A DNA stretch of 64,000 nucleotides from Candidatus Levyibacteriota bacterium (GCA_027459745.1 DAIDHL010000003.1:129125-193124), one strand, 5' to 3'. Numbered from the stretch's first letter, positions 21,783 through 61,715 are shown. A program made the numbers and translations. Notes: generated by a model not told the origin, from the sequence alone.

Positions 21783-21806
21783 TTGATTCTGGACAAGCCA
21801 GAATGA
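21783..21806. repeat. Repeat family C core hairpin (mini copy) between the GLUG gene and the downstream hypothetical gene
   Basis: tgattGATTCTGGacaagCCAGAATgacg: 8-mer inverted pair with a 5-nt loop, same arms as copies 1-3. Confidence 0.5.
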
Positions 21807-21814
21807 CGAAATTT

Positions 21815-33693: not shown

Positions 33694-34626
33694 ATGCTAT
33701 ACTTAATTTGTAGCATGAAATATTTTATCAGACTGATTATTGCTGCATTTATTATCTCGGATATCATAATTGTAGGCTGGATCGGCTTACATAACTACAA
33801 TTTCGCCGTATTAAATCCGCAAGGAATAATTGCCAGTCAAGAAAAACAATTAATGGAAATTGCCCTCATAATGATGTCAATTGTCATCGTGCCCGTGTTT
33901 ATATTTGCCATTTTTGTGGCTATAACATACCGTGCATCCAATACAAAAGCAAATTATATGCCAGATTGGGATCATAATCATGTTATTCAAATTTTCTGGT
34001 GGACATTTACTATTTTTATGGTCAGTACCATGGGCTTTATCAACTGGAATTTCACTCATCATTTAGATCCCAGTCAGGCAATTGCTTCCACTACTCCCCA
34101 GTTGACTGTGCAGGTAATTGCCTTACGTTGGAAATGGTTATTTATATACCCTCAACAAGGTGTCGCCTCGGTTAATTTACTGGAAATACCCGAGCAGACG
34201 CCAATTCATTTTGAGCTAACAGCCGATCAATCCCCTATGACATCTTTTTGGATTCCCCAATTGGGTGGACAAATCTATGCTATGTCTGGTATGTCTACAC
34301 AGACCCACCTGCTTGCAAATAGCCTAGGACAATATTACGGCACCAACACCGAAATTAATGGTCAGGGATTTGCAGAAATGAAATTTATCGCCAAATCAGT
34401 ATCTCACTCTGACTTTGAGAACTGGGTCAGTAATATTAAGCGAGATTCTAAGCCTCTAAATCAGACTCTATATAATCAGTTAACCCAACCAACTGAAGAT
34501 GTGCCAGTGGTAACTTATGCTTCTCCGGTGAATAATCTATTTACATCGGTTATAATGAGATATATGGCCCCTAGTTCTACTCCACAGATGAAGTCAGATA
34601 ATTCCCAATCCAATATGCAAATGTAA
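33694..34626 (+). CDS. cyoA: Cytochrome bo3-type quinol oxidase subunit II
   Basis: 310 aa. Two N-terminal TM helices plus a cupredoxin-fold domain. The CuA ligand cysteines are absent (YYGTNTEINGQGFAEM in place of CxExCG), indicating a quinol rather than cytochrome-c oxidase. Confidence 0.8.
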   Translation: MLYLICSMKYFIRLIIAAFIISDIIIVGWIGLHNYNFAVLNPQGIIASQEKQLMEIALIMMSIVIVPVFIFAIFVAITYRASNTKANYMPDWDHNHVIQIFWWTFTIFMVSTMGFINWNFTHHLDPSQAIASTTPQLTVQVIALRWKWLFIYPQQGVASVNLLEIPEQTPIHFELTADQSPMTSFWIPQLGGQIYAMSGMSTQTHLLANSLGQYYGTNTEINGQGFAEMKFIAKSVSHSDFENWVSNIKRDSKPLNQTLYNQLTQPTEDVPVVTYASPVNNLFTSVIMRYMAPSSTPQMKSDNSQSNMQM

Positions 34627-34633
34627 TCTAAAT

Positions 34634-36628
34634 ATGAACTGGCAATCTTTTATTTTTGGTCAACTTAGCTGGTCTGATCTTCCTCATCAATGGTTCACCA
34701 TTGGTGGTACCGGTGCTATCTTCACCATGCTGGCAGCCGTGGCTCTTTTTCTGACTATAACAAAACGCTGGCAGTGGTTGTGGACCAATTGGTTAACTTC
34801 AACAGATCCCAAAAAAATAGGTGTAATGTATCTGGTGATAGCTTTCTTAATGTTCATTCGGGGGGGATTGGATGCGCTGATGATTTTCGCTCAGCAAGTC
34901 GTAACAGTCGGTCCTGGTTATCTAGGTGCTCAACATGGCTATCTGGATGCCAATCATTTCCAGCAAATTTTTACCGCCCATGGCGATATTATGGTATTTT
35001 TTGTCACCATGGGCTTTTTGTTTGGTTTAATCAATCTAATTGTTCCCCTGCAAATTGGGGCACGCGACCTCGCCTTTCCTTTTCTTAACTCGCTAGGTTT
35101 TTGGCTATATGTGGCTGGTGCAATATTAATTAATATGTTCTTTGTTTTAGGAGGAGAATTTGCCGCCACTGGTTGGCTGGCCGTCGCACCATTGTCTGAA
35201 TTACAATTTCAGCCTGGTGTGGGAGTTAACTATTGGATCTGGAGCCTGCAGATTTCTGGTCTAGGAACTCTTATTGGTGGAATTAACTTTGTAGTAACCA
35301 TATTAAAAATGCGCGCACCAGGCATGACATTAATGCGCATGCCAATGTTTACCTGGACTTCACTGATGAGTATGCTGCTGGTAATTTCTATCTTCCCTAT
35401 TTTGGCCATGACTATCGCTCTTTTGACCCTTGACCGCTATTTGGGTATGCATTTCTTCACTCTCAACAATGCCGGCAATCAGATGATGTACTGGAATCTG
35501 ATCTGGATGTGGGGTCATCCTGAAGTTTATGTCCTGATTATTCCAGCTTTTGGTATTTACTCAGAAGTTGTTTCGACTTTCGCACAAAAAAAAGTCTTTG
35601 GTTATCCCTCACTAGTTGCCGCCGCTGGATTAATCACTCTCTTATCATTCACAGTCTGGCTGCATCATTTTTTTACCATGGGAGCCGGAGCTGATGTAAA
35701 TGCATTTTTTGGCATTATGACCATGTATATTGGTATACCAACGGGTGTACAGATTGTTAACTGGCTGTTGACCATGTTTCGCGGACGTATCAGATTCTAT
35801 TCGCCGATTTATTGGTTTTTTGGTTTTATCAGTACTTTTACTTTCGGTGGTATGGCCGGTATGCTTATGGCTCTACCTCCGGTTGATTTCCAAATTCACA
35901 ACAGTCTGTTTCTGGTCGCACATTTTCATACTATGATCGTCGGAGGTGCTTTGTTTGGTATTTTTGCCGGATTTACTTATTGGTTCCCTAAGATTACCGG
36001 ATTTAAACTGAATGAAAAATTGGGTAAGTATGTTTTTTGGACTTGGCTAGTAGGTTTTTTTGTCTCTTTCGTACCTTTATATATTCTTGGCATGATGGGT
36101 GCAACTCGCCGTATGGATCATTATTCTCCTTCTACCGGCTGGCAATATCTATTTTTAGTGTCGCTTATCGGAGCCTTAATTATTGTGGTAGCTGTAATTT
36201 TACAGGTTGTGCAACTGGTAGTAAGTATCAAACAACGCAAGCAACTGCGTGATACTACCGGAGATCCCTGGAACGGTCGCTCACTCGAATGGTCTACGCC
36301 ATCACCTGTACCATTTTACAATTTTGTGGTTATTCCCCAGGTTAATAGTCGAGATGCCTTTTGGGAGATGAAGCAACAAAAAAATAAGATACCTGTCAGA
36401 TATGAAGACATTGTTTTACCTAAAAATACGGCTTTAGGAATATACCTGGCTAGTTTTCTTTTCTTATTTGGTCTAGCTATGGTTTGGCAGGCAATCTTAT
36501 TTGCTATCATCGGGCTTGTAGGTGCTGTTGTATGTGTAATAAAACGCACATTTGCAGAAGATACGGAATATGTTTTACCAGCCGCTGAGGTAGCCAAACT
36601 GGATAGACAATATCGTCTAGCAGTATAA
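34634..36628 (+). CDS. cyoB: Quinol oxidase subunit I (haem-copper oxidase catalytic subunit)
   Basis: 664 aa. Canonical subunit-I motifs (WMWGHPEVY, HHFFTMG, HFHTMIVGG). Confidence 0.9.
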   Translation: MNWQSFIFGQLSWSDLPHQWFTIGGTGAIFTMLAAVALFLTITKRWQWLWTNWLTSTDPKKIGVMYLVIAFLMFIRGGLDALMIFAQQVVTVGPGYLGAQHGYLDANHFQQIFTAHGDIMVFFVTMGFLFGLINLIVPLQIGARDLAFPFLNSLGFWLYVAGAILINMFFVLGGEFAATGWLAVAPLSELQFQPGVGVNYWIWSLQISGLGTLIGGINFVVTILKMRAPGMTLMRMPMFTWTSLMSMLLVISIFPILAMTIALLTLDRYLGMHFFTLNNAGNQMMYWNLIWMWGHPEVYVLIIPAFGIYSEVVSTFAQKKVFGYPSLVAAAGLITLLSFTVWLHHFFTMGAGADVNAFFGIMTMYIGIPTGVQIVNWLLTMFRGRIRFYSPIYWFFGFISTFTFGGMAGMLMALPPVDFQIHNSLFLVAHFHTMIVGGALFGIFAGFTYWFPKITGFKLNEKLGKYVFWTWLVGFFVSFVPLYILGMMGATRRMDHYSPSTGWQYLFLVSLIGALIIVVAVILQVVQLVVSIKQRKQLRDTTGDPWNGRSLEWSTPSPVPFYNFVVIPQVNSRDAFWEMKQQKNKIPVRYEDIVLPKNTALGIYLASFLFLFGLAMVWQAILFAIIGLVGAVVCVIKRTFAEDTEYVLPAAEVAKLDRQYRLAV

Positions 36629-36636
36629 ATAAGCAT

Positions 36637-37233
36637 ATGAGGAATATACAAAGTGGTAGTTTACAATCAGAAATCGATAATAATGATAAAACCACTCTCG
36701 GCTTTTGGATCTATCTGATGACCGATTTGGTGATGTTTGGTGTATTGTTTGCTACTTATACAGTCTTACGGGGCAATACTTTTGGCGGTCCCTTGGATCG
36801 CCAGGTATTTAATTTACCTTTTGCTTTAGTTGAGACATTAATATTATTAACCAGCAGTTTTACCTGTGGTCTGGCAATCCTGGCAATGCAGACAAAGAAT
36901 AAGACACAGGTATTGATGTGGTTTGTCATCACTTTTCTACTTGGTCTGTCCTTTTTAGGACTGGAGTTAAATGAATTTAATAAGCTAATAAGTGAAGGTA
37001 ACAGTTGGCAGCGCAGTGGATTTTTATCTGCCTATTTTTCCCTTGTCGGAACTCATGGGTTACATATTACTGCCGGACTAGTGTGGATGGGGATTTGTTT
37101 GGTAAAAGTCTGGAAGGAAGGATTAAATTCCAGTTTGTCACGTAAGTTAACTTTACTTAGTCTGTTTTGGCATTTTCTCGATATTGTTTGGATCTTTATT
37201 TTTACAATAGTATATTTACTAAGTGGAATTTAA
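36637..37233 (+). CDS. cyoC: Quinol oxidase subunit III
   Basis: 198 aa, 5 TM helices, conserved FWHFLDIVWIF. Confidence 0.8.
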   Translation: MRNIQSGSLQSEIDNNDKTTLGFWIYLMTDLVMFGVLFATYTVLRGNTFGGPLDRQVFNLPFALVETLILLTSSFTCGLAILAMQTKNKTQVLMWFVITFLLGLSFLGLELNEFNKLISEGNSWQRSGFLSAYFSLVGTHGLHITAGLVWMGICLVKVWKEGLNSSLSRKLTLLSLFWHFLDIVWIFIFTIVYLLSGI

Positions 37234-37612
37234 TATGACAAAAATCAAGCAATCAAATAACAATTTAGAAGAAAGGCCTGTGAAAAATTTAAAAACTTAT
37301 ATCATAGGCTTTGTTAGTTCAATTGTTTTGACTTTAATTCCTTATTTTTTAATTATTAATCACTTTACTACTTCCTATGTTTTACTTACTGTCATTCTTG
37401 TTTTCGCTCTATTGCAGATGCTAGTGCAATTAATATTTTTTTTACATTTGGGCCGAGAGACTAAACCACGTTGGAAACTTGCCGTACTAATTTCTTTTGT
37501 TGGTATTATTTTAATCATTGTAGGTGGCTCTATTTGGATCATGCAGCACCTTAATTACAGTATGAGCCTTTTGCAGTTAAATAATTTAATGCAGTATGGT
37601 GAAGGATTCTAG
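37223..37612 (+). CDS. cyoD: Quinol oxidase subunit IV
   Basis: 129 aa, 3 TM helices. Overlaps cyoC by 11 nt. Confidence 0.65.
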   Translation: MEFNMTKIKQSNNNLEERPVKNLKTYIIGFVSSIVLTLIPYFLIINHFTTSYVLLTVILVFALLQMLVQLIFFLHLGRETKPRWKLAVLISFVGIILIIVGGSIWIMQHLNYSMSLLQLNNLMQYGEGF

Positions 37613-37655
37613 TCTCCACCTGCTTAACTAATTAATTTAAAATATTACTAAAATC

Positions 37656-38510
37656 ATGTTTAAACATTACTATCTTCTAGCCAAACCAGGCATGGTGTAT
37701 GGTAATACTATTTCGGCCATAGCTGGTTTTTTATTTGCCTCCAAAGGAAATTTCAATTTAATCCTATTTGTTACCACCATTTTGGGTATTTCCTTGGTCA
37801 TCGCTTCTGCCTGTGTTTTTAATAATTATCTTGATCGTGAAATCGACAAAAAAATGTTGCGAACAAGTAAACGCCCCCTGGTTATGGGCTCGATATCTCC
37901 ACTTCATGCTTTAATTTACGGTACAATTCTGGCAATCTTAGGTTTTGGTTTATTATTAATTTTTACTAACCTACTTACTCTTGCCTTGGGCTTTATAGGT
38001 TGGTTTTTTTATGTAGCAATTTATGGATTTGTCAAAAGACGCTCAACTTTTGGAACCTTAGTTGGAAGTGTTTCTGGATCTATGCCTCTAGTAGGCGGCT
38101 ATTGTGCCGTGACAAATCAGTTTGATACCGCAGCTTTGCTTTTATTTATAATTATGACAATCTGGCAAATGCCTCATTTTTATGCAATTGCCATTTATCG
38201 TTTGGCAGATTATAAAAAAGCTGGTTTACCAGTATTGCCGGTTGTTAAGGGTACTAATATTACCAAAGTAGACATAATTATTTATGTTCTCGCATTTTTA
38301 GTCGCCAGCTATTTATTATTTTTTTATCACTATGCTGGCTATATATACCTTATAATTATGCTTGGTTTAGGCTTATATTGGCTAAGGCTGAGTACAATTG
38401 GACTTCATACTAGCAATGATGAACTATGGGGACGTTCTGTATTTAAATTCTCCTTAATAATTTTGTTAGTTTTTTGTGTTCTACTATCTTTTTCTTATTG
38501 GCTGCCATAA
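37656..38510 (+). CDS. cyoE: Protohaem IX farnesyltransferase (haem O synthase)
   Basis: 284 aa. UbiA-family motif NNYLDREIDKKM plus multiple TM helices. Last gene of the cyo operon. Confidence 0.8.
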   Translation: MFKHYYLLAKPGMVYGNTISAIAGFLFASKGNFNLILFVTTILGISLVIASACVFNNYLDREIDKKMLRTSKRPLVMGSISPLHALIYGTILAILGFGLLLIFTNLLTLALGFIGWFFYVAIYGFVKRRSTFGTLVGSVSGSMPLVGGYCAVTNQFDTAALLLFIIMTIWQMPHFYAIAIYRLADYKKAGLPVLPVVKGTNITKVDIIIYVLAFLVASYLLFFYHYAGYIYLIIMLGLGLYWLRLSTIGLHTSNDELWGRSVFKFSLIILLVFCVLLSFSYWLP

Positions 38511-46136: not shown

Positions 46137-47423
46137 ATGGCAAAATTTATTAAGAACTACGAGACTTTAGCTACGACTGAAGAAAGGAAATTAGTATTAG
46201 ATCTCATAGACACCGCAATTACGGCTATTCAACCACAAGAAGTCATAAATTCTCACTTTACAATTGTAGATGAAGTCCTGCACGTACAAGATCAACAATT
46301 TAATTTACACAATTTTAGTCGTATTTTTCTCATCGGTTTTGGTAAAGGTTCCGGCGAAATTTCTTTTCTAATAGAAAAAGTTTTAGGCGAGAAACTTACG
46401 ACAGGTTATGTAATCGACGCCAAGCAACAAACGTTTAATAAGGCCCAATTTACCTTAGGTACTCATCCCCTCCCTTCATTAGCCAACCTGGATTTCACAC
46501 AAAATGTTTTGGAACAACTTAGCGGCTTAACAGAAAGTGATTTGGTAATCATGGTAACGTGCGGCGGCGGCTCAGTAATGTTTGAGAAGCCACATAGTTT
46601 GAGTCTGGAAAAATTAATTGACTTTAATAAAGCTCTTTTACATGCCGGTGCCAATATCCACGATATGAATGTCATGCGCAAACACGTCTCCAAAGTTAAA
46701 GGCGGCGGACTGGCAGAACATTTATATCCTGCGACCGTAGTAAATCTGGTTTTCTCTGACGTGCCGGGAGATGATTTATCGGTTATTGCTTCCGGCCCAC
46801 TTATTAAAGATGAATCAACAGTCGGCGAAGCTTGGGATTTATATATAAAATTTAAAATTAACCAAACGATTAAATTAAAAGAGCGAGATTTTTTTGAAAC
46901 GCCTAAGGATGATAAGTTTTTTACCCATACACATAATATTTTGATGGATACGAATATGACCGCTATGAGCAAAATGCAAGATCTGGCCAAGCAACGCAAT
47001 ATAAATGTGCAAATTTATTCTAATTCTTTTCAGTCTGACGCCGACTCGGCTGGCAAAAAGCTTATAGATAAAACACCCGATAATACATTGCTGTTGGCGG
47101 GAGGAGAAACTACGGTAAAAGTAAGTGGCAAGGGTGGTGAAGGCGGCAGAAATCAGGAACTAGTCTTGGCTGCTCTACCCTATTTGGGAGACAAAATTAC
47201 TATCGCGGCTTTTGATTCAGACGGATGGGATAATTCACCTATCGCCGGTGCAATTGGTGATAAACAAACCTTAACCACAGCTAAAGAGAAGAATCTTGAC
47301 CCTCACACTTATTTAAAAGCGCACAATAGCTCTCCATTTTTCCGAGCTGTAAACGATGCCATCATTACAGATAAGCTTTCTTCCAACGTCTCCGATTTAA
47401 TGATAGTATATAAGAAAGCATAG
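46137..47423 (+). CDS. Glycerate kinase, MOFRL family (glycerate 2-kinase type)
   Basis: 428 aa. LLLAGGETTVKVSGKGGEGGRNQELVLAA matches the MOFRL GGETTV...GGRNQE core. Confidence 0.7.
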   Translation: MAKFIKNYETLATTEERKLVLDLIDTAITAIQPQEVINSHFTIVDEVLHVQDQQFNLHNFSRIFLIGFGKGSGEISFLIEKVLGEKLTTGYVIDAKQQTFNKAQFTLGTHPLPSLANLDFTQNVLEQLSGLTESDLVIMVTCGGGSVMFEKPHSLSLEKLIDFNKALLHAGANIHDMNVMRKHVSKVKGGGLAEHLYPATVVNLVFSDVPGDDLSVIASGPLIKDESTVGEAWDLYIKFKINQTIKLKERDFFETPKDDKFFTHTHNILMDTNMTAMSKMQDLAKQRNINVQIYSNSFQSDADSAGKKLIDKTPDNTLLLAGGETTVKVSGKGGEGGRNQELVLAALPYLGDKITIAAFDSDGWDNSPIAGAIGDKQTLTTAKEKNLDPHTYLKAHNSSPFFRAVNDAIITDKLSSNVSDLMIVYKKA

Positions 47424-47480
47424 ATAACATTGGAAAGAGGAATGATTTTTTCACTGTATTAAGCAATGTTATTCACGTCT

Positions 47481-47553
47481 TTGCGAGGAGCATAGCGACG
47501 AAGCAATCTAGATTGCTTCGCTCCATTTCATTTCGCTCGCAATGACAATCATC
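47481..47553. repeat. Repeat family A, copy 1: about 70-bp imperfect palindrome with perfect 22-bp palindrome CGAAGCAATCTAGATTGCTTCG, abutting the start of the transketolase N-subunit gene
   Basis: ttgcgaggagcatagcgacGAAGCAATCTAGATTGCTTCgctccatttcatttcgctcgcaatgacaatcatcta. The gene's ATG at 47555 lies in the element tail. Confidence 0.8.
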
Positions 47554-47554
47554 T

Positions 47555-48418
47555 ATGATTGCAGAGTTGAACGATTTACAATTAAAACATTTACAAGAAA
47601 AAGCTGTCGAGATGCGTGAGCATATTATTGAAATGCTACTGGAAGCCAAATCGGGACATTCGGCCGGTCCGTTGGGTATGGCCGATATTTTTACCGCCTT
47701 TTATTTCCATATTCTCAACCATGATCCACGCAACCCCGATTGGGATGACCGTGATCGTTTGGTTCTTTCCAATGGACATATATGCCCGGTACAATATGCT
47801 GCTCTGGCTATGTCGGGCTATTTCCCGATTGAAGAATTGAAAACTCTGCGCAAAATTAACTCTCGTTTGCAGGGACATCCTCACCGAGGAACATTACCCG
47901 GTATTGAGACCACATCGGGCCCTTTAGGTGAGGGACTTTCGCAAGCTATAGGTATGGCTTTAGCCCTCAAACTGGATAATAAAGTTGCTCATGTCTATTG
48001 TTTGGGCTCTGATGGTGAATTACAGGAAGGCAATCCTTGGGAAGCAGCAATGTTTGCGGGCAAAAATAGATTATCAAATCTAACCTTAGTAATCGATCGT
48101 AACAATATTCAGATTGATGGTTTTACAGAAGATGTCATGCCTATTGAACCCCTCAAAGATAAATTTGCTGCGTTTAACTGGCATGTGTTAGAAATTGATG
48201 GACATAATATGCAAATGTTAGTGGATGCTGTCAACGAAGCCAAAGCTATTCATCAACAGCCCACTGTGATTATCGCTCACACTATCCCTGGCAAAGGCGT
48301 CGACTTCATGGAAAACAAATTTGAATGGCACGGCATGCCGCCTGATAAAGATCAAGCCAAAAAAGCACTCGATGAATTAAGGACTTTACAAGGAAAGATA
48401 GAAAATGAAAGTCAGTAA
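47555..48418 (+). CDS. Transketolase, N-terminal (TPP-binding) subunit of a split transketolase
   Basis: 287 aa. SGHSAGPLG and GSDGELQEGNPWEA are the TPP-binding motifs of the transketolase N-terminal half. Confidence 0.85.
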   Translation: MIAELNDLQLKHLQEKAVEMREHIIEMLLEAKSGHSAGPLGMADIFTAFYFHILNHDPRNPDWDDRDRLVLSNGHICPVQYAALAMSGYFPIEELKTLRKINSRLQGHPHRGTLPGIETTSGPLGEGLSQAIGMALALKLDNKVAHVYCLGSDGELQEGNPWEAAMFAGKNRLSNLTLVIDRNNIQIDGFTEDVMPIEPLKDKFAAFNWHVLEIDGHNMQMLVDAVNEAKAIHQQPTVIIAHTIPGKGVDFMENKFEWHGMPPDKDQAKKALDELRTLQGKIENESQ

Positions 48419-48440
48419 GATAGTAAGATAAAATATAATA

Positions 48441-48545
48441 GCGAGGAATAATTTTTTCGCGGTAAACCTAGAAGGGATGAACAACCGGATAAGTTCAAAC
48501 CAAGATAGTCCGACGGGTGCACAAGAAAAAATTCGTTCCTAGCGA
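48441..48545 (+). repeat. Repeat family B, copy 1 (candidate cis-regulatory leader) between the transketolase N- and C-subunit genes
   Basis: Begins gcgaggaataatttttt. Shares the family core GTAAACCTAGnAGGGnTnAAnAACCGGATAAGTTCAAACCAAGATAGTCCGACGGGTGCACAAGAAAAAATT with the copies at 49556, 51519 and 53686. Ends about 12 nt before the transketolase C-subunit ATG. Confidence 0.8.
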
Positions 48546-48556
48546 CAAAGAAAAAT

Positions 48557-49549
48557 ATGTTAAATCCAAATTTAAAACTTAACGATAAAATGTTTGACCA
48601 AGATGCTAACAAAAAAGCTACGCGTGACGGCTTTGGCGAAGGTTTGGTAGAATTGGGCAATTCAAATCCCAATGTAGTGGTGCTCACAGCCGATTTATCT
48701 GACTCCACTCGTACCGATAAATTTGCTAAGGCACATCCTGAGAGATTTTTTGAAGTCGGAGTGGCTGAACAAAATATGGCTGCTATTGCTGCTGGCTTGG
48801 CCGAAGCTGGGAAAATAGCTTTCATCTCTTCTTACGCTACTTTCTCCCCTGGTAAAAACTGGGAAACAATTCGCACTACTGCTGTTTATAATCGAGCTAA
48901 CGTGAAAATTGCTGGCCACCACAGCGGAGTGATGACGGGACCTGATGGAGCAACTCATCAAGCCACCGAAGATATCGCAATCACCCGTTGCTGGCCGGAT
49001 ATCCAGATCTATGTCCCCTGTGACAGTGTTGAAGGTAAAAAAGCCACCCTCGCTAGTGCTAATATCCCCACTGCTGTCTATTTAAGATTTACCAGAGATA
49101 AATCAGCCGTCATGACTACAGAAGAAACATCTTTTGAGGTGGGTAAAATTCAGGACTTCTGGATTTCTGATAATCCTCAAGTAACCATTTTTGCTACCGG
49201 TTATTTACTTTATCAAGCTTTATTAGCAGCTAAGCAATTAGAAGAGGAAGGTATTCAAACCATAGTCGCTAACGTTTCAACTATCAAACCACTTGACGGC
49301 GAGGGCATTTTAAGATTAACTGATAAGACCCGTGCAGTCATTACAGTCGAAGATCACCAAATCATGGGCGGATTAGGCGGAGCAATTGCCGAATTTCTAG
49401 CTAAGAATCAGCCTTTGCCAATGGAGTTTATTGGTTTGCAAGATACTTTTGCACAGTCAGGAACACCGGATGAGTTGCTGGCTAAATATAAAATGGATGC
49501 ACCCGCCATCAAAGAAGCTGTTAAGAAGGTAATAGGAAGAAAAACCTAA
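48557..49549 (+). CDS. Transketolase, C-terminal (pyrimidine-binding/C-domain) subunit
   Basis: 330 aa. FEVGVAEQNMAAIAAGLA and the downstream transketolase C domain. Confidence 0.85.
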   Translation: MLNPNLKLNDKMFDQDANKKATRDGFGEGLVELGNSNPNVVVLTADLSDSTRTDKFAKAHPERFFEVGVAEQNMAAIAAGLAEAGKIAFISSYATFSPGKNWETIRTTAVYNRANVKIAGHHSGVMTGPDGATHQATEDIAITRCWPDIQIYVPCDSVEGKKATLASANIPTAVYLRFTRDKSAVMTTEETSFEVGKIQDFWISDNPQVTIFATGYLLYQALLAAKQLEEEGIQTIVANVSTIKPLDGEGILRLTDKTRAVITVEDHQIMGGLGGAIAEFLAKNQPLPMEFIGLQDTFAQSGTPDELLAKYKMDAPAIKEAVKKVIGRKT

Positions 49550-49555
49550 AACAAA

Positions 49556-49660
49556 GAGCGAGAAATGATTTTTCGCAGTAAACCTAGGAGGGATGAAAAA
49601 CCGGATAAGTTCAAACCAAGATAGTCCGACGGGTGCACAAGAAAAAATTATTTCAAGCGA
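49556..49660 (+). repeat. Repeat family B, copy 2, in the leader of the FAD-linked oxidase gene
   Basis: gcgagaaatgatttttcgcaGTAAACCTAGgAGGGATGAAaAACCGGATAAGTTCAAACCAAGATAGTCCGACGGGTGCACAAGAAAAAATT. Differs from copy 1 at only about 2 core positions. Confidence 0.8.
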
Positions 49661-49674
49661 AAATACAAAAATAT

Positions 49675-51330
49675 ATGAATGAACAACTTTTAAATGAACT
49701 AAAATCAATTATTAAAGGCGAAGTCCACACCGATGACGATACACTCGTCGAATACAGCCATTGTGCCTCTCTTTTTGAAATCAAACCCAAAGTAGTGGTT
49801 TTCCCTCGTGATGAAGAAGATGTAAAAAACTTGGTCAAATTTGTGGATAAATATAAAACGGAACATTCGGAACTATCTTTGACAGCCCGTTCGGCTGGAA
49901 CTGATATGGGTGGGGGGCCACTCAGTGAATCAATCGTAGTCGGATTTCAGAAGTTCTTTAATCATCTACCCACGGTAGTTGAGCAAACAGCTACTACTCA
50001 ACCCGGAGTTTTTTATCGCGATTTTGAAAAAGAAACACTCAAGCATGGTTTGATTTTCCCTTCTTATCCAGCATCGCGTGAACTCTGTGCCATGGGTGGC
50101 ATAGTCAACAATAATTCCGGTGGAGAAAAATCCTTACAATACGGCAAAACAGAAAGATATGTAGAAAGTCTGCAAGTTGTTTTATCCGATGGCAACCAAT
50201 ATGAATTCAAACCCTTAAATGAAGAAGAATTAAATAAAAAAATGGCCCAAAATGATTTCGAAGGAGAATTGTACAAAAAAATGTTTAATTTAATCAATGA
50301 TAATTATGACTTGTTACAGCAACATAAACCTAAAGTTTCTAAAAATTCTGCAGGATACTATTTGTGGAATGTTTATGATCGTGAGAAAAAAGTGTTCGAT
50401 CTATCCAAATTATTTGTCGGAGCACAAGGAACTTTGGGATTTTTGACCAGTGCGAACATAAAACTTGTTCCCGTCAAAAAGCATGCTGAGATGATGATTT
50501 TGTTTTTACACAACATCGATCATTTAGGAGAAATTATTAATCTGGTGTTGCCTTTGCAGCCAGATACATTTGAAACTTATGATGATAATACTCTTAAGCT
50601 TGCTCTCAAATTTTTCCCCGAATTTGCTAAATTCCTGGGAACCAAGGGTATTATTCAAACTGGTTTACAGTTTATTCCAGAATTTATGATGGTCTTGACC
50701 GGCGGCTTGCCCAAATTAATTTTGCAGATTGATTTCCAGTCTGATGATCGTGCACAACTGGACAAAGACATTGCGCAGTTAAAAGAAAAATTAAAACCTT
50801 TACATCCTGAAACTCGTATTGCCCACAATGAAGATCAGGAAAAGAAATATTGGATGATCAGACGTGAAAGTTTCAATTTGTTACGCAATAAAGTCAAAGA
50901 TATGCACACTGCTCCTTTTATCGATGATTTTGCTGTCGAGCCGAAATATCTGTCTGAATTTTTGCCTAAATTAAATGCCATTTTTGTCAAATATCCCAAA
51001 TTAATCTATACGGTTGCAGGTCATGTTGGAGATGGTAATTTCCACATCATTCCTTTGATGAAAATTGAAGATCCCAAACAGCGCGAAATCATCCCGGTAT
51101 TAGGCAAAGAGGTTTATGACCTGGTGTTGCAATATCATGGAACTATTACCGCCGAACACAATGACGGGATTATCAGAACTCCCTATCTGAAACAAATGTA
51201 TGGTGAAGAAGTATATAAATTATTTGAGCAAACGAAGCAGATTTTTGATCCGCAGAATATATTTAACCCCGGTAAAAAAGTGGGAGGAACTATGGATTAT
51301 GCCATGTCTCACATCCGCCAAAGCTGGTAA
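49675..51330 (+). CDS. FAD-linked oxidase (GlcD / D-lactate dehydrogenase family: FAD_binding_4 plus FAD-oxidase C domain)
   Basis: The ORF track starts at a GTG at 49633 that lies inside repeat B2. The first ATG is 49675 (MNEQLL...), taken as the start. PCMH-type FAD-binding domain (PRDEEDVKNLVKFV ... ARSAGTDMGGGPL). Confidence 0.75.
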   Translation: MNEQLLNELKSIIKGEVHTDDDTLVEYSHCASLFEIKPKVVVFPRDEEDVKNLVKFVDKYKTEHSELSLTARSAGTDMGGGPLSESIVVGFQKFFNHLPTVVEQTATTQPGVFYRDFEKETLKHGLIFPSYPASRELCAMGGIVNNNSGGEKSLQYGKTERYVESLQVVLSDGNQYEFKPLNEEELNKKMAQNDFEGELYKKMFNLINDNYDLLQQHKPKVSKNSAGYYLWNVYDREKKVFDLSKLFVGAQGTLGFLTSANIKLVPVKKHAEMMILFLHNIDHLGEIINLVLPLQPDTFETYDDNTLKLALKFFPEFAKFLGTKGIIQTGLQFIPEFMMVLTGGLPKLILQIDFQSDDRAQLDKDIAQLKEKLKPLHPETRIAHNEDQEKKYWMIRRESFNLLRNKVKDMHTAPFIDDFAVEPKYLSEFLPKLNAIFVKYPKLIYTVAGHVGDGNFHIIPLMKIEDPKQREIIPVLGKEVYDLVLQYHGTITAEHNDGIIRTPYLKQMYGEEVYKLFEQTKQIFDPQNIFNPGKKVGGTMDYAMSHIRQSW

Positions 51331-51334
51331 AGGT

Positions 51335-51420
51335 AATTTAAAATTTAGAATTATTCCTGATTCTCTAAAATTTGATTCTGGAGTCACTACGTTCCGAATG
51401 ACTATGAAGTCTCGTCATTG
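51335..51420. repeat. Repeat family C, copy 2 (degenerate) 3' of the FAD-oxidase gene
   Basis: ttattcctgattctctaaaatttGATTCTGGAGTCACTACGttccgaatgactatgaagtc. Shares GATTCTGGAGTCACTACG with copy 3. Confidence 0.55.
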
Positions 51421-51437
51421 CAAGGGTTTGAAAAACC

Positions 51438-51495
51438 CAAAGCAATCTAGATTGCAACGTCGTTCGCTTCGCTCACTCCTAGCAATGACAATCTA
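51438..51495. repeat. Repeat family A, copy 2 (degenerate; left arm replaced by a gggtttgaaaaaccc mini-hairpin)
   Basis: aAGCAATCTAGATTGCaacgtcgttcgcttcgctcactcctagcaatgacaatcta. Confidence 0.6.
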
Positions 51496-51518
51496 AATTT
51501 TTAAAAAAGGCCAAGGAA

Positions 51519-51610
51519 CGTGTTTTTTTCGCAGTAAACCTAGTAGGGTTTAACAACCGGATAAGTTCAAACCAAGATAGTCCGACGGGTATACAAGAAA
51601 AAAAATATTC
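51519..51610 (+). repeat. Repeat family B, copy 3 (orphan: no downstream plus-strand gene; lies 3' of the convergent kinase/aldolase gene)
   Basis: tgtttttttcgcaGTAAACCTAGtAGGGtTtAACAACCGGATAAGTTCAAACCAAGATAGTCCGACGGGTatACAAGAAAAAAAAT. Confidence 0.8.
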
Positions 51611-51618
51611 TCGGCAAA

Positions 51619-53541
51619 TTATTTGTCAGTGAACACCTGATAATAGTGGAAGAAATTTGTGGAGATTTTTTCAATTGTTTCTTCTCTACTCGCTTTTTTA
51701 TTATAGAAATCTGAGATCGCATCCCAAAAAATTGTTCTTCCCACGGCAAACCCAATCACTCCCGGCACTTGCGAACCTAATTTAATCCAGTTATCCACTG
51801 TAGCATCATCCGCCCCTCTTCCTAATACCACAATCCCCACACCTTGCCTCTCATCAATCTGCGCTTGATGCACACAATTTTTATATGCTCCCTCTGATTC
51901 CATCCCTTCCAGCTTCCACACATCCGGCTCTACGCCGGCATCTTGTAATTCTTTGATCATTTGCACGGTCAAACCGGGACGAATTGTTTTATCATATTCT
52001 TTCTTATCCCCATTGGCTTTGGCTAACTGTTCCTCATTTGCCCCCACCAACACTTCTAACAAAAATTTATGTCCATGTTCATGACAATAATTGCTAATTT
52101 TTTTCAAAGTAACTTGTTGTCGTTGACGCGAATCGGCTGCATCGGCTGGATTATATTTAATTAATACTTTAGCAAATGTAGGTTTATACTTTTCAATATG
52201 TTCGGCAAAATGTTCTCCGTATTCAAAAGCAAATTCTTCCTGACCACTTTTTTCTACTGTCAAGATTGTGACAAAACCCTGCTGCTTGGCAGTCTTTAGT
52301 ACTTCATCGCCATATTCTTCGTCAACCAAAATACCGGCCATTTCTTTGGGAAGGCCTTTATTTATGGATGATTGGAAACCAGCAAAAATAATATTTTTGA
52401 AATCTCTAATTGCTTCTTTTTGTTCCTCTGTCATTTCCTCCATCTTCACATTAAACAAATGCTGAGCAAACGTATTGCGATGATCAAATGGCAAAATATA
52501 TAAATTTTTATCGTAACCGAGTTTTAATTTGGTCATAGAAAATCCACCCTCTGCTGCTTTTTTATCCGCTAATTTACTCACTATTTTATCTTGCGTTAAC
52601 AATCCAACTTGTGCGCCCACTTGACCGATCACAGATATGGCATTCTGTGTCCCCCATTCCATGGCATCATCTATCGAGCGATTCATTTGCCAAGCCGCTA
52701 AAAATCCGGCTGTATAGGCATCACCGGCACCTGTTTTCTCGACAATTTCTACTTCTGGCGTGAAATGATAATAAAAACTGCCTTCATCATCCCGGACATA
52801 TGAACCATGTACCCCATTAGTTATAACACAAACTTTAACTCCTAACTCCGCAAGTTTGTCCATTAATCCTTGAATATATTCTTTACTATCATTAGCTTGT
52901 TGTGGTTCTTGACCAAACAATAATTGCTCGGCTTCTTCTTTATTCACAAAAAGTATTTGTGTGCGCTTTAAAACTTCTTTGCTTAACTCCATGTCTTCAT
53001 GTAGTTGTAACGACCCAGGATTAAAAGCGAGAGGGATTTGTGTCTTATCAATAAAATCAATCGTTTGTTGATAAACTTTTTTCCATTCATTACCCAAACT
53101 CGTCAGAAAAATTAACTTGGCTTTTTTCATTTTGCTAAAGTTGAATGCATGTTCTCTCACTGGTCTATCAGTAAACAAAGTCCGATCTCCTTGATAATTC
53201 ATACCTACGGTTAAAGAAGAAGATTTAGTAGGAGTTTTAATCAATAAACTTTCATCTATTTGCTCTTTGTTTAATCCATCCAAAATCAAGCCAGATAAAC
53301 TATCATCGCCCAACTCAGCGGCTAGAGCTGTACTCACACCCAAACGACATAAACCAACGGCCACATTGGCTGCATTACCACCAACCGAAGTGGCACAATG
53401 ATCCACATCAATTTTCTCACCATATTTGAAGCAAAATTCACGTGTACCTGAATTCAAACGAATTTCTTTATTTTCAGGCAAAAAACTTAAAAAAATATCT
53501 ACTGTGGTATCACCTATAGTCACTACCTCAAACTCGGGCAT
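51619..53541 (-). CDS. Bifunctional PfkB-family sugar kinase fused to DUF2090 class-I-aldolase-like domain (IolC/IolJ-like kinase/aldolase fusion)
   Basis: 640 aa. PfkB signatures GGNAANVAVGL and GAGDAYTAGFLAAW in the N-terminal half. C-terminal roughly 300 aa has TIM-barrel aldolase-like character, as in the DUF2090 domain fused to the kinase in some IolC annotations. Confidence 0.6.
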   Translation of the reverse strand: MPEFEVVTIGDTTVDIFLSFLPENKEIRLNSGTREFCFKYGEKIDVDHCATSVGGNAANVAVGLCRLGVSTALAAELGDDSLSGLILDGLNKEQIDESLLIKTPTKSSSLTVGMNYQGDRTLFTDRPVREHAFNFSKMKKAKLIFLTSLGNEWKKVYQQTIDFIDKTQIPLAFNPGSLQLHEDMELSKEVLKRTQILFVNKEEAEQLLFGQEPQQANDSKEYIQGLMDKLAELGVKVCVITNGVHGSYVRDDEGSFYYHFTPEVEIVEKTGAGDAYTAGFLAAWQMNRSIDDAMEWGTQNAISVIGQVGAQVGLLTQDKIVSKLADKKAAEGGFSMTKLKLGYDKNLYILPFDHRNTFAQHLFNVKMEEMTEEQKEAIRDFKNIIFAGFQSSINKGLPKEMAGILVDEEYGDEVLKTAKQQGFVTILTVEKSGQEEFAFEYGEHFAEHIEKYKPTFAKVLIKYNPADAADSRQRQQVTLKKISNYCHEHGHKFLLEVLVGANEEQLAKANGDKKEYDKTIRPGLTVQMIKELQDAGVEPDVWKLEGMESEGAYKNCVHQAQIDERQGVGIVVLGRGADDATVDNWIKLGSQVPGVIGFAVGRTIFWDAISDFYNKKASREETIEKISTNFFHYYQVFTDK

Positions 53542-53586
53542 AGATTTATCATAAAGAATTTTTGCCGGTGCTACAAGTACTATCGT

Positions 53587-53660
53587 AATTGCGAGCGAAA
53601 TGAAATGTAACGAAGCAATCTAGATTGCTTCGTCGCTACGCTCCTCGCAATAACAATTAT
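53587..53660. repeat. Repeat family A, copy 3, inverted relative to copy 1; contains perfect 24-bp palindrome ACGAAGCAATCTAGATTGCTTCGT
   Basis: attgcgagcgaaatgaaatgtaACGAAGCAATCTAGATTGCTTCGTcgctacgctcctcgcaataacaattatcta. The reverse complement of copy 1's 60-bp hairpin part matches this copy at about 57 of 60 positions by my hand alignment. The 3' tail (caat[g/a]acaat[c/t]atcta) is in the same orientation in both. Confidence 0.75.
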
Positions 53661-53685
53661 CTATTTATCCTTTCCTCTGATAACT

Positions 53686-53785
53686 AGCGAGAAATATTTT
53701 TTAGCTGTAAACCTAGAAGGGTTTAACAACCAGATAAGATCAAACCAAGATAGTCCGACAGATGCACAAGAAAAAATTGTTTCAA
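53686..53785 (+). repeat. Repeat family B, copy 4, in the ndh leader
   Basis: gcgagaaatattttttagctGTAAACCTAGAAGGGtTtAACAACCaGATAAGaTCAAACCAAGATAGTCCGACaGaTGCACAAGAAAAAATT. ATG of ndh about 55 nt downstream. Confidence 0.8.
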
Positions 53786-53840
53786 GCAATAAAGCAGAGA
53801 TTGTATTACCGAGAGAATACTAGTAACATAATTAGAGTCA

Positions 53841-55058
53841 ATGGAAAACAAACTTAACATCGTGGTTCTTGGTGGTGGATTCGCAGGCGTAGCGGCTATC
53901 AAAGAATTACTCAAATACCAATCAGAAATTAAAGCTAACATTACTCTAGTCGATCGCAATAACTATCATCTATTTACTCCCTCCTTGTATGAGGTAGCCA
54001 CTTCAGAAGAACCCATGAAAAATATTGCCATACCCTTCGTAGAAATCTTTGGCCAAAAAATTAATTATTTAACTGGCAGCATTGAAAAAATTGATCAAGC
54101 TAATCATAGCATTCAAATTAATCAACAAACTATAAATTATGATTATTTAATTGTTTGTCTGGGCAGTGAACCAGCTTATTACCATATCCCTGGACTGCAA
54201 GAACATAGTTTGGCTCTCAAATCTTTACAGGAAGCCGTTGATATAAAAGAAAAAATTAAGTCAGCCTGTTGTAAAGAAAATGAATGCCACAAAAAAGCGC
54301 AGATCATCGTGGGAGGAGGCGGTTTTGCCGGCACTGAACTGGCAGCTGAATTACTTACTTATAAAGATCGTCTGGCCACACAAAATAAATTGGATAAAGA
54401 TTGTCTGGAAGTCACCATTATTCAAGGCTCAGATCGGCTATTAAAGGAGTTAGATAATCATGTTTCTGATCTGGCCAGTAAAAGACTAGCTACTCCCATG
54501 GTACATTTGGCTTTCGGTGGTCATATCAAAGAAGTAACTGACACAAATGTAGTGACTGATGATGGAAAAACTTATAATTATGACGTTTTATTGTGGACCG
54601 GCGGAGTGAAAGCTAATTCGTTAGTGGAAAAAAATGGTTTTGAGGTTAATAAACGTGGACAGATTAATGTTAACAATTTCCTGCAGACTAAAGATGCAAA
54701 AATCTTTGCGGCGGGAGATATTGCTGGATATATAGATACTAAAACCCAAAGTCCTGTCCCTAATGTTGCCCAAGTAGCCGAAGATCAAGGCAGGATTGCG
54801 GCCTTTAATGTTTACAATTTAATCACTAAGAAAACTTTATTGGAGTATAAATTTAGACATTGGGGCTATGTCGTACCACTAAAAGGTAGATTTGCAGCCG
54901 CAGAATTAGAAGGCAATTTACATTTTGATGGATTTTTAGGTTGGGTCTTACAACAACTCGTTTTTCTCTACTATTTATTAGGCATTGTTAGTATCTTGAA
55001 AGCCTTTAAAAGATGGGATGAAGTTCTGATGGATTATGATAAAAATATTTCCAATTAG
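53841..55058 (+). CDS. ndh: Type II NADH:quinone oxidoreductase (NDH-2)
   Basis: 405 aa. Two GxGxxG dinucleotide folds (VVLGGGFAGV, VGGGGFAGTELAAEL). NNYHLFTPSLYEVAT matches the NDH-2 quinone-site motif. C-terminal membrane-anchoring helix. Confidence 0.75.
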   Translation: MENKLNIVVLGGGFAGVAAIKELLKYQSEIKANITLVDRNNYHLFTPSLYEVATSEEPMKNIAIPFVEIFGQKINYLTGSIEKIDQANHSIQINQQTINYDYLIVCLGSEPAYYHIPGLQEHSLALKSLQEAVDIKEKIKSACCKENECHKKAQIIVGGGGFAGTELAAELLTYKDRLATQNKLDKDCLEVTIIQGSDRLLKELDNHVSDLASKRLATPMVHLAFGGHIKEVTDTNVVTDDGKTYNYDVLLWTGGVKANSLVEKNGFEVNKRGQINVNNFLQTKDAKIFAAGDIAGYIDTKTQSPVPNVAQVAEDQGRIAAFNVYNLITKKTLLEYKFRHWGYVVPLKGRFAAAELEGNLHFDGFLGWVLQQLVFLYYLLGIVSILKAFKRWDEVLMDYDKNISN

Positions 55059-61626: not shown

Positions 61627-61715
61627 AAAAATCTATGATTCTGGCTTGACCAGAATCGAGAGAATTAAACCTAGATTCTGGAGTCACTACGCTCCCCAGA
61701 ATCATATTGTTTATC
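61627..61715. repeat. Repeat family C, copy 3, forming the sufS 5' leader: four alternating GATTCTGG / CCAGAATC 8-mers
   Basis: aaaaatctatGATTCTGGcttgaCCAGAATCgagagaattaaacctaGATTCTGGAGTCACTACGctccCCAGAATCatattg. Lies immediately upstream (minus sense) of the sufS start at 61626. Confidence 0.7.

Follow-up and report, generated by a model that had tools for sequence, protein, structure and literature searches.

A lineage-restricted, probably mobile ~103-nt palindromic repeat in the gaps of a sugar and respiration gene cluster of an uncultured Patescibacteria bacterium

Introduction

When the same conserved non-coding sequence stands before several genes of a cluster, is it a regulatory leader or a repeat that has been inserted there? 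The question is raised by the genome of an uncultured Patescibacteria bacterium, in which near-identical elements sit in the gaps of one sugar/respiration gene cluster. The first-pass annotation of this DNA offered two readings, a cis-regulatory RNA and an amplified REP/BOX/MITE-like intergenic repeat, one copy of which was inserted in a split transketolase. Our analysis of the window (the whole 64-kb stretch of DNA) gave no support to the first reading and favours the second.

Results

A repeat search of the 64-kb window recovered four copies of a ~103-nt non-coding element (101–106 nt), here called family B, all on the plus strand and within 5.3 kb. The host operon (47555..51330, plus strand), as annotated with Pfam, comprises TktN (47555-48418), TktC (48557-49549) and an FAD-linked oxidase (49675-51330). 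Copy 1 (48441..48543; 5′ arm 48441-48458, core 48459-48524, 3′ arm 48525-48543) lies between the TktN stop (48418) and the TktC ATG (48557), and copy 2 (49558..49658) between the TktC stop (49549) and the oxidase ATG (49675). Copy 3 (51510..51615) is upstream of no gene and sits where the oxidase (ends 51330) and PfkB-DUF2090 (minus strand, ends 51619) converge; copy 4 (53687..53787) lies where PfkB-DUF2090 (minus strand, start 53541) and ndh (ATG 53841) diverge. Covariance model R1 scores copies 1 to 4 at 133, 128, 113 and 127 bits (48437-48550, 49554-49665, 51510-51622 and 53683-53794); run with filters off over the whole 64 kb, it gives everything else at most 14 bits, with no copy in the other ~58 kb. 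An 18-mer, AAACCAAGATAGTCCGAC, which is the invariant part of the core, occurs four times in the window against 0.02 expected.

Each copy consists of a 68-nt core, 85–96% identical between copies, flanked by AT-rich, imperfectly complementary arms. Four near-identical plus-strand copies had been described at essentially these coordinates, and the repeat family, the 18-mer count and the R1 scores all agree with that description. The ~2–6 core substitutions reported earlier are too few, since pairwise differences amount to 3–10 of the 68 positions, and copy 3, first placed at 51519-51610, is longer than was thought, reaching from 51510 to 51615. Copies 1, 2 and 4 end about 13, 16 and 53 nt before the respective ATGs, matching the distances first given.

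The gene order TktN-TktC-oxidase is conserved in the relatives L009, L012, L022 and L023, and also in L010, where extra ORFs are inserted. In the closest relative, L009, whose oxidase is 91% identical, 9 nt separate TktN from TktC and another 9 nt TktC from the oxidase; the two spacers read 'aacaaacat' at the copy 1 site and 'gttttagat' at the copy 2 site. The same two spacers measure 8 and 65 nt in L012 and 64 and 30 nt in L022; in L023 both are long and filled by unrelated sequence. That copy 1 splits TktN from TktC, as had been proposed, is thus confirmed, these genes being 8–9 nt apart in two relatives. The Ndh/PfkB spacer, 299 nt in the window, is shorter in L024 (105 nt) and L025 (78 nt). 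At the copy 3 site the relative's contigs end, and the comparison covers the other three. The sites of copies 1, 2 and 4 are therefore empty in L009/L024 and in L012, L022 and L025, a presence/absence polymorphism, and R1 found no family B copy over ~48 kb of the relatives' syntenic DNA. Because the closest relative's spacers measure 9, 9 and 105 nt, at least three copies (1, 2 and 4) are lineage-specific insertions that postdate the split from the nearest sequenced relative.

Family B is not the only repeat in the region. Family A, palindromic and unrelated to B, has three copies in the window, all in the same 6.3 kb as B. Its copy 1 (47481..47549, plus strand) lies between glycerate kinase and TktN and forms an inverted repeat with its copy 3, being 93% complementary to 53582-53650; since the glycerate kinase and TktN genes overlap in L009, this copy is an insertion. 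A diverged copy 2 (51400..51490, minus strand) sits immediately upstream of B copy 3 and is preceded by a fragment of a third family, C (51366-51395), which occurs elsewhere in the window. Copy 3 (53582..53650, minus strand), immediately upstream of B copy 4, is absent from L024 and L025, so that two family A copies (47481 and 53582) are insertions relative to the relatives. A composite transposon, with these inverted repeats around 6 kb, was considered and rejected because the enclosed genes are in ancestral syntenic order. Given the presence of families A and C besides B, the source genome accumulates small palindromic insertions generally.

The arms of family B span ~15–18 bp (5′ GCGAGRAAU.AUUUUUU ... 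AAAAAAUU.RUUYC.AGC 3′), and 88% of arm cells are paired versus 36–62% in controls with the partner slid. Three arm pairs are changed on both sides among the four copies with pairing kept, the arms of copy 3 remain complementary with ~46% difference from those of the other copies, and on the plus strand the arms hold four G·U pairs versus one A·C mismatch. Pairing maintained through double changes is a hint that selection acts on a hairpin, not on ends bound by a transposase. Conservation is higher in the core than in the arms (Fisher p = 0.004 to 3e-5 in comparisons involving copy 3 or copies 1–2). Folded alone, cores do no better than shuffles (z-scores −0.19, +0.83, −0.42 and −0.71), and the folds differ among copies. 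Core covariation, sought in four sequences and hence with low power, was not found, and every double-changed pair sits in the outer stem; an apparent covariation of columns 27 and 60 was discarded as it had no stacking neighbours. A hexamer palindrome in the core, GTGCAC, becomes GTATAC in copy 3, a double change that preserves the palindrome in this single copy.

Family B is non-coding, because differences in its open frames are mostly non-synonymous and the plus-strand ATG is missing in copies 3 and 4, and a small-peptide reading was rejected on these grounds. The minus-strand frame is open in all four copies, where 12 variable core columns would translate into about 10 amino-acid changes; in the plus-strand frame three of the four codon differences between copies 1 and 4 are non-synonymous.

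We found no match to family B in the collections searched, though the kind of element is fairly ordinary. Rfam at gathering thresholds gave no family match across the whole window, and at E ≤ 10 nothing between 48300 and 53900 overlapped any copy; the first-pass annotation had not recognised the element as a riboswitch class either. A tRNA/tmRNA search found none. The 18-mer had seven hits in GTDB representative genomes, nine in JGI metagenomes and one in IMG/VR; these scans demanded an exact match, which diverged homologs could escape, and as none of the hits has flank similarity, all are chance matches. A second core pattern had 0 hits in viral contigs, and blastn against plasmids and phages gave no match. 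Six-frame pseudo-peptides, aimed at spurious ORFs called over copies in other assemblies, had no hit among 5.8 billion proteins. Literature searches turned up nothing relevant on small repeats or structured RNAs specific to CPR bacteria.

The terminator scan placed no site at the four copies, neither terminators nor promoters were enriched in the region, and no Shine-Dalgarno-like sequence is visible by eye between the 3′ arm and the ATG of copies 1 and 2. A promoter-like block (53801..53829, plus strand; TTGTAT, 17 nt, TAACAT), conserved in an alignment of three genomes, ends 11 nt before the ndh ATG; it is the likely ndh promoter, and copy 4 lies upstream of it. The proposal of a riboswitch or protein-binding leader co-regulating a regulon finds no support in these data: the element is not conserved at orthologous leaders, the core has no fold, there is no expression platform, copy 3 precedes no gene and copy 4 probably precedes the ndh promoter. 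Family B is probably not a metabolite- or protein-sensing leader.

Discussion

Family B is probably an insertion element of the MITE/ERIC/Correia/bcr1 kind: palindromic, ~103 nt long, non-coding and restricted to one lineage. The suggestion of an amplified intergenic repeat is supported, with three of four sites empty in the closest and other relatives and the element absent from the public collections searched. Reviews describe elements of this class: a core lies between terminal inverted repeats (TIRs), the elements are co-transcribed and form long RNA stem-loops, related genomes differ in whether they carry them, and in bcr1 there are compensatory changes (PMC3184786, PMC10969869). Family B has terminal inverted repeats around a core, with arms that are imperfect and vary between copies; it is small (101–106 nt), with neither a transposase gene nor coding capacity; and it shows presence/absence polymorphism at the orthologous sites of copies 1, 2 and 4.

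The element entered a conserved gene cluster at three or more intergenic spacers, two of which were 9-nt junctions of the tktN-tktC-oxidase operon. The enzyme that mobilised it would be encoded outside the window and have acted in trans. A Pfam search of the main ORFs of at least 120 aa, which are most but not all of the ORFs in the 64-kb window, found no transposase, integrase or reverse transcriptase, nor a RAYT/Y1 transposase or TnpA gene. Apart from a 2-nt GA at copy 2, no copy is directly bordered by a direct repeat, the longest shared flank words were matched by 21–88% of shuffles, and alignments of filled and empty sites show no duplicated target. The lack of a target-site duplication and the uniform orientation would be better explained by a mechanism of the IS200/IS605 or REP/RAYT type, which is strand-specific and makes no duplication, than by a classical DDE cut-and-paste transposase. 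Copies 1 and 2 would be co-transcribed in sense with the operon, and their arms could fold into a long mRNA hairpin. The effect on the host may be neutral or modest, for example an uncoupling of the translation of adjacent genes or a site for RNase III/RNase E processing or stabilisation, of the sort described for Correia and ERIC elements. Termination of the convergent transcripts may be aided by copy 3.

Several observations do not sit easily with a MITE. No target-site duplication was found, nor, among the main ORFs of at least 120 aa in the 64 kb, any transposase, integrase or reverse transcriptase. The four known copies share one orientation within 5.3 kb, whereas the hallmark of these elements is genome-wide dispersal. 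A core conserved above the arms is the reverse of what is typical.

It is useful to compare family B with characterized elements, none of which it fully resembles. ERIC (~127 bp) is likewise an imperfect, non-coding palindrome of ~100–130 nt in transcribed intergenic regions, including operons, and forms a long RNA hairpin able to alter mRNA decay (PMC3184786, PMC10969869). As with family B, its presence at a locus varies between relatives; the two share no sequence similarity. ERIC has tens to hundreds of dispersed copies in both orientations, and in Photorhabdus and Xenorhabdus the termini of ERIC-type copies are flanked by TA and the target is duplicated (PMC3184786, PMC10969869), whereas family B has no such duplication and four known copies, in one orientation, in one 5.3-kb region. 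Correia elements (Neisseria MITEs, ~104–157 bp) are similar in size, have inverted-repeat arms and insert beside or within operons, where they are co-transcribed and their mRNA hairpin is an RNase III substrate (PMC10969869). Their TIRs are, however, the conserved part, whereas it is the arms that vary in family B. Correia elements also carry promoters or IHF sites, and neither motif was identified in family B. Correia elements have a TA duplication. The bcr1 repeat of the Bacillus cereus group (~155 bp) is also a transcribed small repeat whose distribution differs between close relatives, and compensatory base changes keep its RNA stem (PMC3184786). It is flanked by 5-bp direct repeats, which family B does not have, and there is no sequence similarity between them. 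REP/REPIN elements, which RAYT (Y1/HUH) transposases mobilise, and IS200/IS605-derived PATEs are, like family B, hairpin-based and make no target-site duplication. Mobilisation in the IS200/IS605 family is strand-specific, which would explain the uniform orientation. In REPs the arms are conserved and the loop variable, the reverse of what family B shows. The palindromes of REPs are short and rich in G+C (PMC3184786), while the arms of family B are AT-rich and its least conserved part.

A newly arisen, lineage-specific cis-regulatory RNA (riboswitch-like or protein-binding), copied within one locus and co-regulating pentose-phosphate and respiratory genes, seems to us unlikely. All four copies are sense-oriented, three end 13–53 nt before an ATG, and no further copy is present elsewhere in the window. 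Family B also resembles riboswitch aptamers in having a variable but paired closing stem (P1) around a conserved core, with arms that pair through double changes and favour G·U over A·C on the plus strand. It differs from them in its want of cross-species conservation, of a significant or shared core fold or covariation, of an expression platform and of an Rfam family. The orthologous junctions in relatives are 8–9-nt spacers, so no ancestral regulation existed there, and no homolog turned up in the collections searched. None of the copies is followed by a terminator, no Shine-Dalgarno-like sequence can be seen at copies 1 and 2, copy 3 has no downstream gene and copy 4 stands upstream of a conserved promoter-like block. 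The unrelated family A clusters likewise, so clustering needs no function specific to family B. A broader formulation, which we regard as unlikely, is a de novo, lineage-restricted functional RNA module, be it a new small ribozyme or a newly born leader or processing signal specific to a regulon. The existence of only four sense copies in one carbon/respiration cluster would then reflect local copying, with retention because they rewire expression of tktC, the FAD oxidase and their neighbours; function would reside in the 68-nt core, with the co-varying arms serving as a P1-like clamp.

It is improbable that family B acts at the DNA level, its copies being bound by a regulator or nucleoid protein or serving a site-specific recombinase as attC-like sites, in double-stranded DNA or as a folded single strand. 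A core conserved without an RNA fold, one orientation and gene-boundary positions like cassette junctions would agree with this, as would the GTGCAC palindrome kept as GTATAC, an observation that rests on one copy. Yet the genes between copies are in ancestral operon order and are not mobile cassettes, the RYYYAAC/GTTRRRY core sites of integron attC were not seen by eye at the ends, and the Pfam search of main ORFs of at least 120 aa found no integrase or recombinase in the 64 kb. Transcription terminators or insulator hairpins recruited between genes are very unlikely, since termination would be harmful at copies 1 and 2, which an operon encloses, the scan finds no site at any copy and no regional enrichment, and AT-rich arms around a ~68-nt loop are far outside intrinsic-terminator geometry; copy 3 would fit, lying between convergent genes and having on its minus strand, right behind the stop codon of PfkB-DUF2090, a GGCC-closed hairpin and then UUUUUU. 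Small ribozymes are often found in clusters of several copies whose role is unknown, and a mobile RNA that is structured and active in its own right, for example a new self-cleaving class, would suit the long closing stem around a conserved ~68-nt core, the several copies within a few kb and the absence of an Rfam match, but it is the least credible reading: the core has no stable or shared secondary structure or internal covariation, five core substitutions in copy 4 break most candidate pairings, and no homologs were found, whereas known ribozyme classes are widespread.

If family B is indeed a small insertion element, its significance is mostly a matter of housekeeping: a small, streamlined Patescibacteria genome would have been colonised by several tiny palindromic insertion families. 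Such elements could enter 9-nt junctions between genes that, from their short spacer, are probably translationally coupled, and leave the operon intact. It would also warn against taking a repeated conserved leader upstream of related genes for a riboswitch where paralogous insertion accounts for the copies. Three oddities are left: the core is conserved above the arms, the target is not duplicated, and two repeat families that are unrelated to each other keep to the same 6.3 kb. They could be signs of an uncharacterised mechanism of mobilisation in CPR bacteria, either strand-specific or acting locally. On a smaller scale, the GTG start called for the oxidase at 49633 does fall inside copy 2, as had been noticed; alignment of orthologs favours the ATG at 49675 as the real start, and the insertion would explain the mis-called codon.

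Four copies of a palindromic element

Family B is probably a lineage-restricted palindromic insertion element that would be mobilised in trans and would be neutral for its host or mildly affect mRNA processing or translational coupling. A repeat search recovered it as the one direct-repeat family with four members in the 64-kb window, its invariant 18-mer AAACCAAGATAGTCCGAC occurs there four times against 0.02 expected, and the copies score 113-133 bits with R1, the covariance model made from them, with no other match above 14 bits in the window with filters off. The four copies described in the first-pass annotation are thus confirmed by all three approaches. R1 places them on the plus strand at 48437-48550 (copy 1), 49554-49665 (copy 2), 51510-51622 (copy 3) and 53683-53794 (copy 4). 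Measured across its outermost base pair, each copy spans 101-106 nt and consists of two AT-rich arms, with a U-run in the 5′ arm and an A-run in the 3′ arm, around a 68-nt core. The near-identity of the cores reported earlier holds, but the count of 2-6 substitutions was somewhat low, since copy pairs differ at 3-10 of the 68 positions. In copy 3, ~46% of arm positions are unlike the other copies, yet the arms are still mutually paired.

By Pfam, the genes run from glycerate kinase (46137-47423) through TktN (47555-48418), followed by copy 1, TktC (48557-49549), followed by copy 2, an FAD-linked oxidase (49675-51330), whose homologs carry the source names Patescibacteria, Daviesbacteria or Saccharimonadales, followed by copy 3, and PfkB-DUF2090 (51619-53541, minus strand), followed by copy 4, to an Ndh-type flavoprotein (53841-55058). 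The names of the oxidase homologs mark the source as a CPR bacterium. The distances first given from copies to start codons hold, and so does the placement of a GTG at 49633 inside copy 2. Alignment with the ortholog on L009, a contig of the closest relative GCA_027459725.1, supports the ATG at 49675 as the true oxidase start; annotations that use the mechanical GTG start gain 14 spurious residues.

Filled and empty sites in relatives

The closest relative (oxidase 91% identical, PfkB-DUF2090 80% identical) has the same gene order as the window, with glycerate kinase overlapping TktN on L009. Its TktN/TktC spacer holds nothing but 'aacaaacat' and its TktC/oxidase spacer nothing but 'gttttagat', and the divergent Ndh/PfkB spacer is 299 nt in the window against 105 nt on the relative's second contig, L024, and 78 nt at L025, a locus of another relative. 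At least copies 1, 2 and 4 are therefore insertions. At the TktN/TktC and TktC/oxidase junctions of further relatives, spacers measure 8 and 65 nt (L012, 77% identical), 64 and 30 nt (L022, 81% identical), and 104 nt (1013-1116) and 128 nt (2107-2234) (L023, 79% identical). The L023 spacers are AT-rich and unrelated to family B, so different lineages acquired different sequence at the same places, and small insertions seem to have landed repeatedly at both junctions. With filters off, R1 had no match above 15 bits in ~48 kb of relatives' DNA.

The closest relative's two contigs, DAIDHK010000006.1 and DAIDHK010000010.1, each break off within the oxidase/PfkB convergent spacer (L009 11657-11838, L024 11924-12008) and share there an outward-facing 26-nt repeat, ggcttaattaagaattagtgtggtaa, read outward from each gene, which is not family B. 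This indicates an inverted repeat in the relative's spacer, which probably broke its assembly where the window has family A and copy 3. A short contig from another sample extends 70 nt past the oxidase stop codon without family B.

Other small palindromic insertions

A second palindromic repeat, family A, is unrelated to family B, contains GAAGCAATCTAGATTGCTTC and follows the pattern …TTGCGAGGAGCGTAGCGACGAAGCAATCTAGATTGCTTCG…CTCGCAATGAC. Its exactly three window copies all fall within 6.3 kb that also hold family B: one on the plus strand at 47481-47549, and two on the minus strand at about 51400-51490 and at 53582-53650, directly preceding copies 3 and 4 of family B, respectively. Two of the three (47481 and 53582) are absent from the closest relative, where their sites are empty, and family A had zero matches in IMG/VR. 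A third hairpin family, C (GATTCTGG...CCAGAATC), lies at 61640-61705 and 21785-21815, and part of it recurs at 51366-51395. It sits in the GARS/aminotransferase spacer, which measures 306 nt in the window and 107 nt in L024, and therefore counts as another lineage-specific insertion. Together, the three families point to a genome that keeps gaining small palindromic insertions of various types. Since the unrelated family A shares the clustering near carbon and redox genes, no function specific to family B is needed to account for it.

Nature and distribution of family B

Of the two readings first offered, a MITE- or REP-like repeat is the best explanation, from the filled and empty sites and the anatomy, although in the strict sense it is only a candidate MITE. 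What argues for it is the arrangement of arms around a non-coding core, the length of ~100 nt, the filled and empty sites, the transcribed spacers and the predicted long RNA hairpin. The same anatomy is found in ERIC, Correia, RUP and bcr1, bacterial MITE-like repeats in which Correia arms undergo RNase III cleavage, ERIC triggers RNase E-dependent decay and the bcr1 stem is kept by compensatory changes (PMC3184786, PMC10969869).

The four known copies all lie within 5.3 kb and show no target-site duplication, and Pfam identified no transposase, integrase or reverse transcriptase among most window ORFs of at least 120 aa. IS200/IS605 or RAYT-like mobilisation is strand-specific and non-duplicating. 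Because duplications are absent and the copies uniformly oriented, such a mechanism would fit better than a DDE transposase, although four copies would share one orientation by chance with a probability of 1/8.

The distribution of family B is extremely narrow. A scan with the invariant 18-mer TCAAACCAAGATAGTCCG returned seven matches in 185,579 GTDB species representatives, nine in 241 M JGI metagenome records and one in IMG/VR. None had similarity outside the 18-mer and all came from unrelated taxa, which marks every one as a chance match. Should the source assembly be a GTDB representative of which the window alone was masked, the scan would imply that its genome has no other exact-core copies. 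Blastn against plasmid and phage collections gave zero matches, as did a search of concatenated family B ORFs against 5.8 billion predicted proteins, which sought spurious ORFs over copies.

Alternative explanations

Three features keep other explanations alive. In four of six pairwise comparisons the arms have diverged significantly more than the core (Fisher p from 0.004 to 3e-5), whereas MITEs usually show the opposite; the arms stay paired through double changes; and the core hexamer palindrome GTGCAC reads GTATAC in copy 3, so that the palindrome is kept. For each of the four rivals considered here, the positive support is this architecture alone.

A young cis-regulatory RNA, the other reading first proposed, is unlikely. 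The arms do pair in all four copies: in the four-copy alignment, 88% of the cells of the 15-pair outer helix are standard pairs against 36-62% with the partner slid by 1-3 columns. Three arm pairs are altered on both sides, which 18 of 500 shuffles also attained. On the plus strand the arms have four G.U pairs and a single A.C mismatch, weakly hinting that the hairpin of this strand may be the form maintained. Covariation, proposed at first pass as a check, is seen as double changes in the arms but not in the core, where none of the 12 variable columns of the four-copy alignment shows covariation backed by a helix. Folded alone, the core had an MFE no better than shuffles (z-scores -0.19, +0.83, -0.42 and -0.71), its predicted structure differs in each copy, and the five core substitutions of copy 4 break most candidate pairs.

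Gene context, together with this lack of a core fold and the empty 8-9-nt junctions in relatives, also argues against a riboswitch or leader. Because the operon holding copies 1 and 2 is contiguous in relatives, both are most probably part of its transcript, in sense orientation. Copy 3 is flanked by convergent genes. Closely following copy 4 is a non-coding block shared by three genomes (53801-53829; TTGTAT, 17 nt, TAACAT) and ending 11 nt ahead of the ndh ATG, which suggests a promoter yielding a nearly leaderless ndh mRNA and would place copy 4 upstream of it, outside any leader. No more than two copies of the four can thus count as leaders in any way, and these two have recently intruded into junctions for which 9 nt suffice in the sister lineage.

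A protein-binding or recombination site acting at the DNA level, with which the kept hexamer palindrome would agree, is improbable. We give still less weight to a terminator or insulator; no terminator-like site falls on a copy, and 47300-54000 shows no excess of promoter- or terminator-like sites over shuffles. A novel ribozyme is the least credible. No Rfam family reached its gathering score in the whole window, the three weak matches at E<=10 over 48300-53900 all fall outside the copies, which thus match no known RNA family, and ARAGORN found neither tRNA nor tmRNA.

Observations on neighboring genes

In other Patescibacteria, three proteins of ~882-894 aa (P0087, P0093 and P0119) join TktC domains (Transket_pyr, Transketolase_C) to FAD-oxidase domains; they could be genuine gene fusions or products of reading through the tight tktC-oxidase junction. 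CPR bacteria are mostly described as fermentative, and an aerobic respiratory chain is unusual among them. The NDH-2-type flavoprotein (53841-55058) occurs in the same Patescibacteria genome as a quinol-oxidase-type heme-copper oxidase operon (33694-38510), which encodes COX2 with a COX_ARM motif, COX1, COX3 and COX4, has a UbiA-family heme O synthase-like gene, and is conserved in the closest relative (L009).
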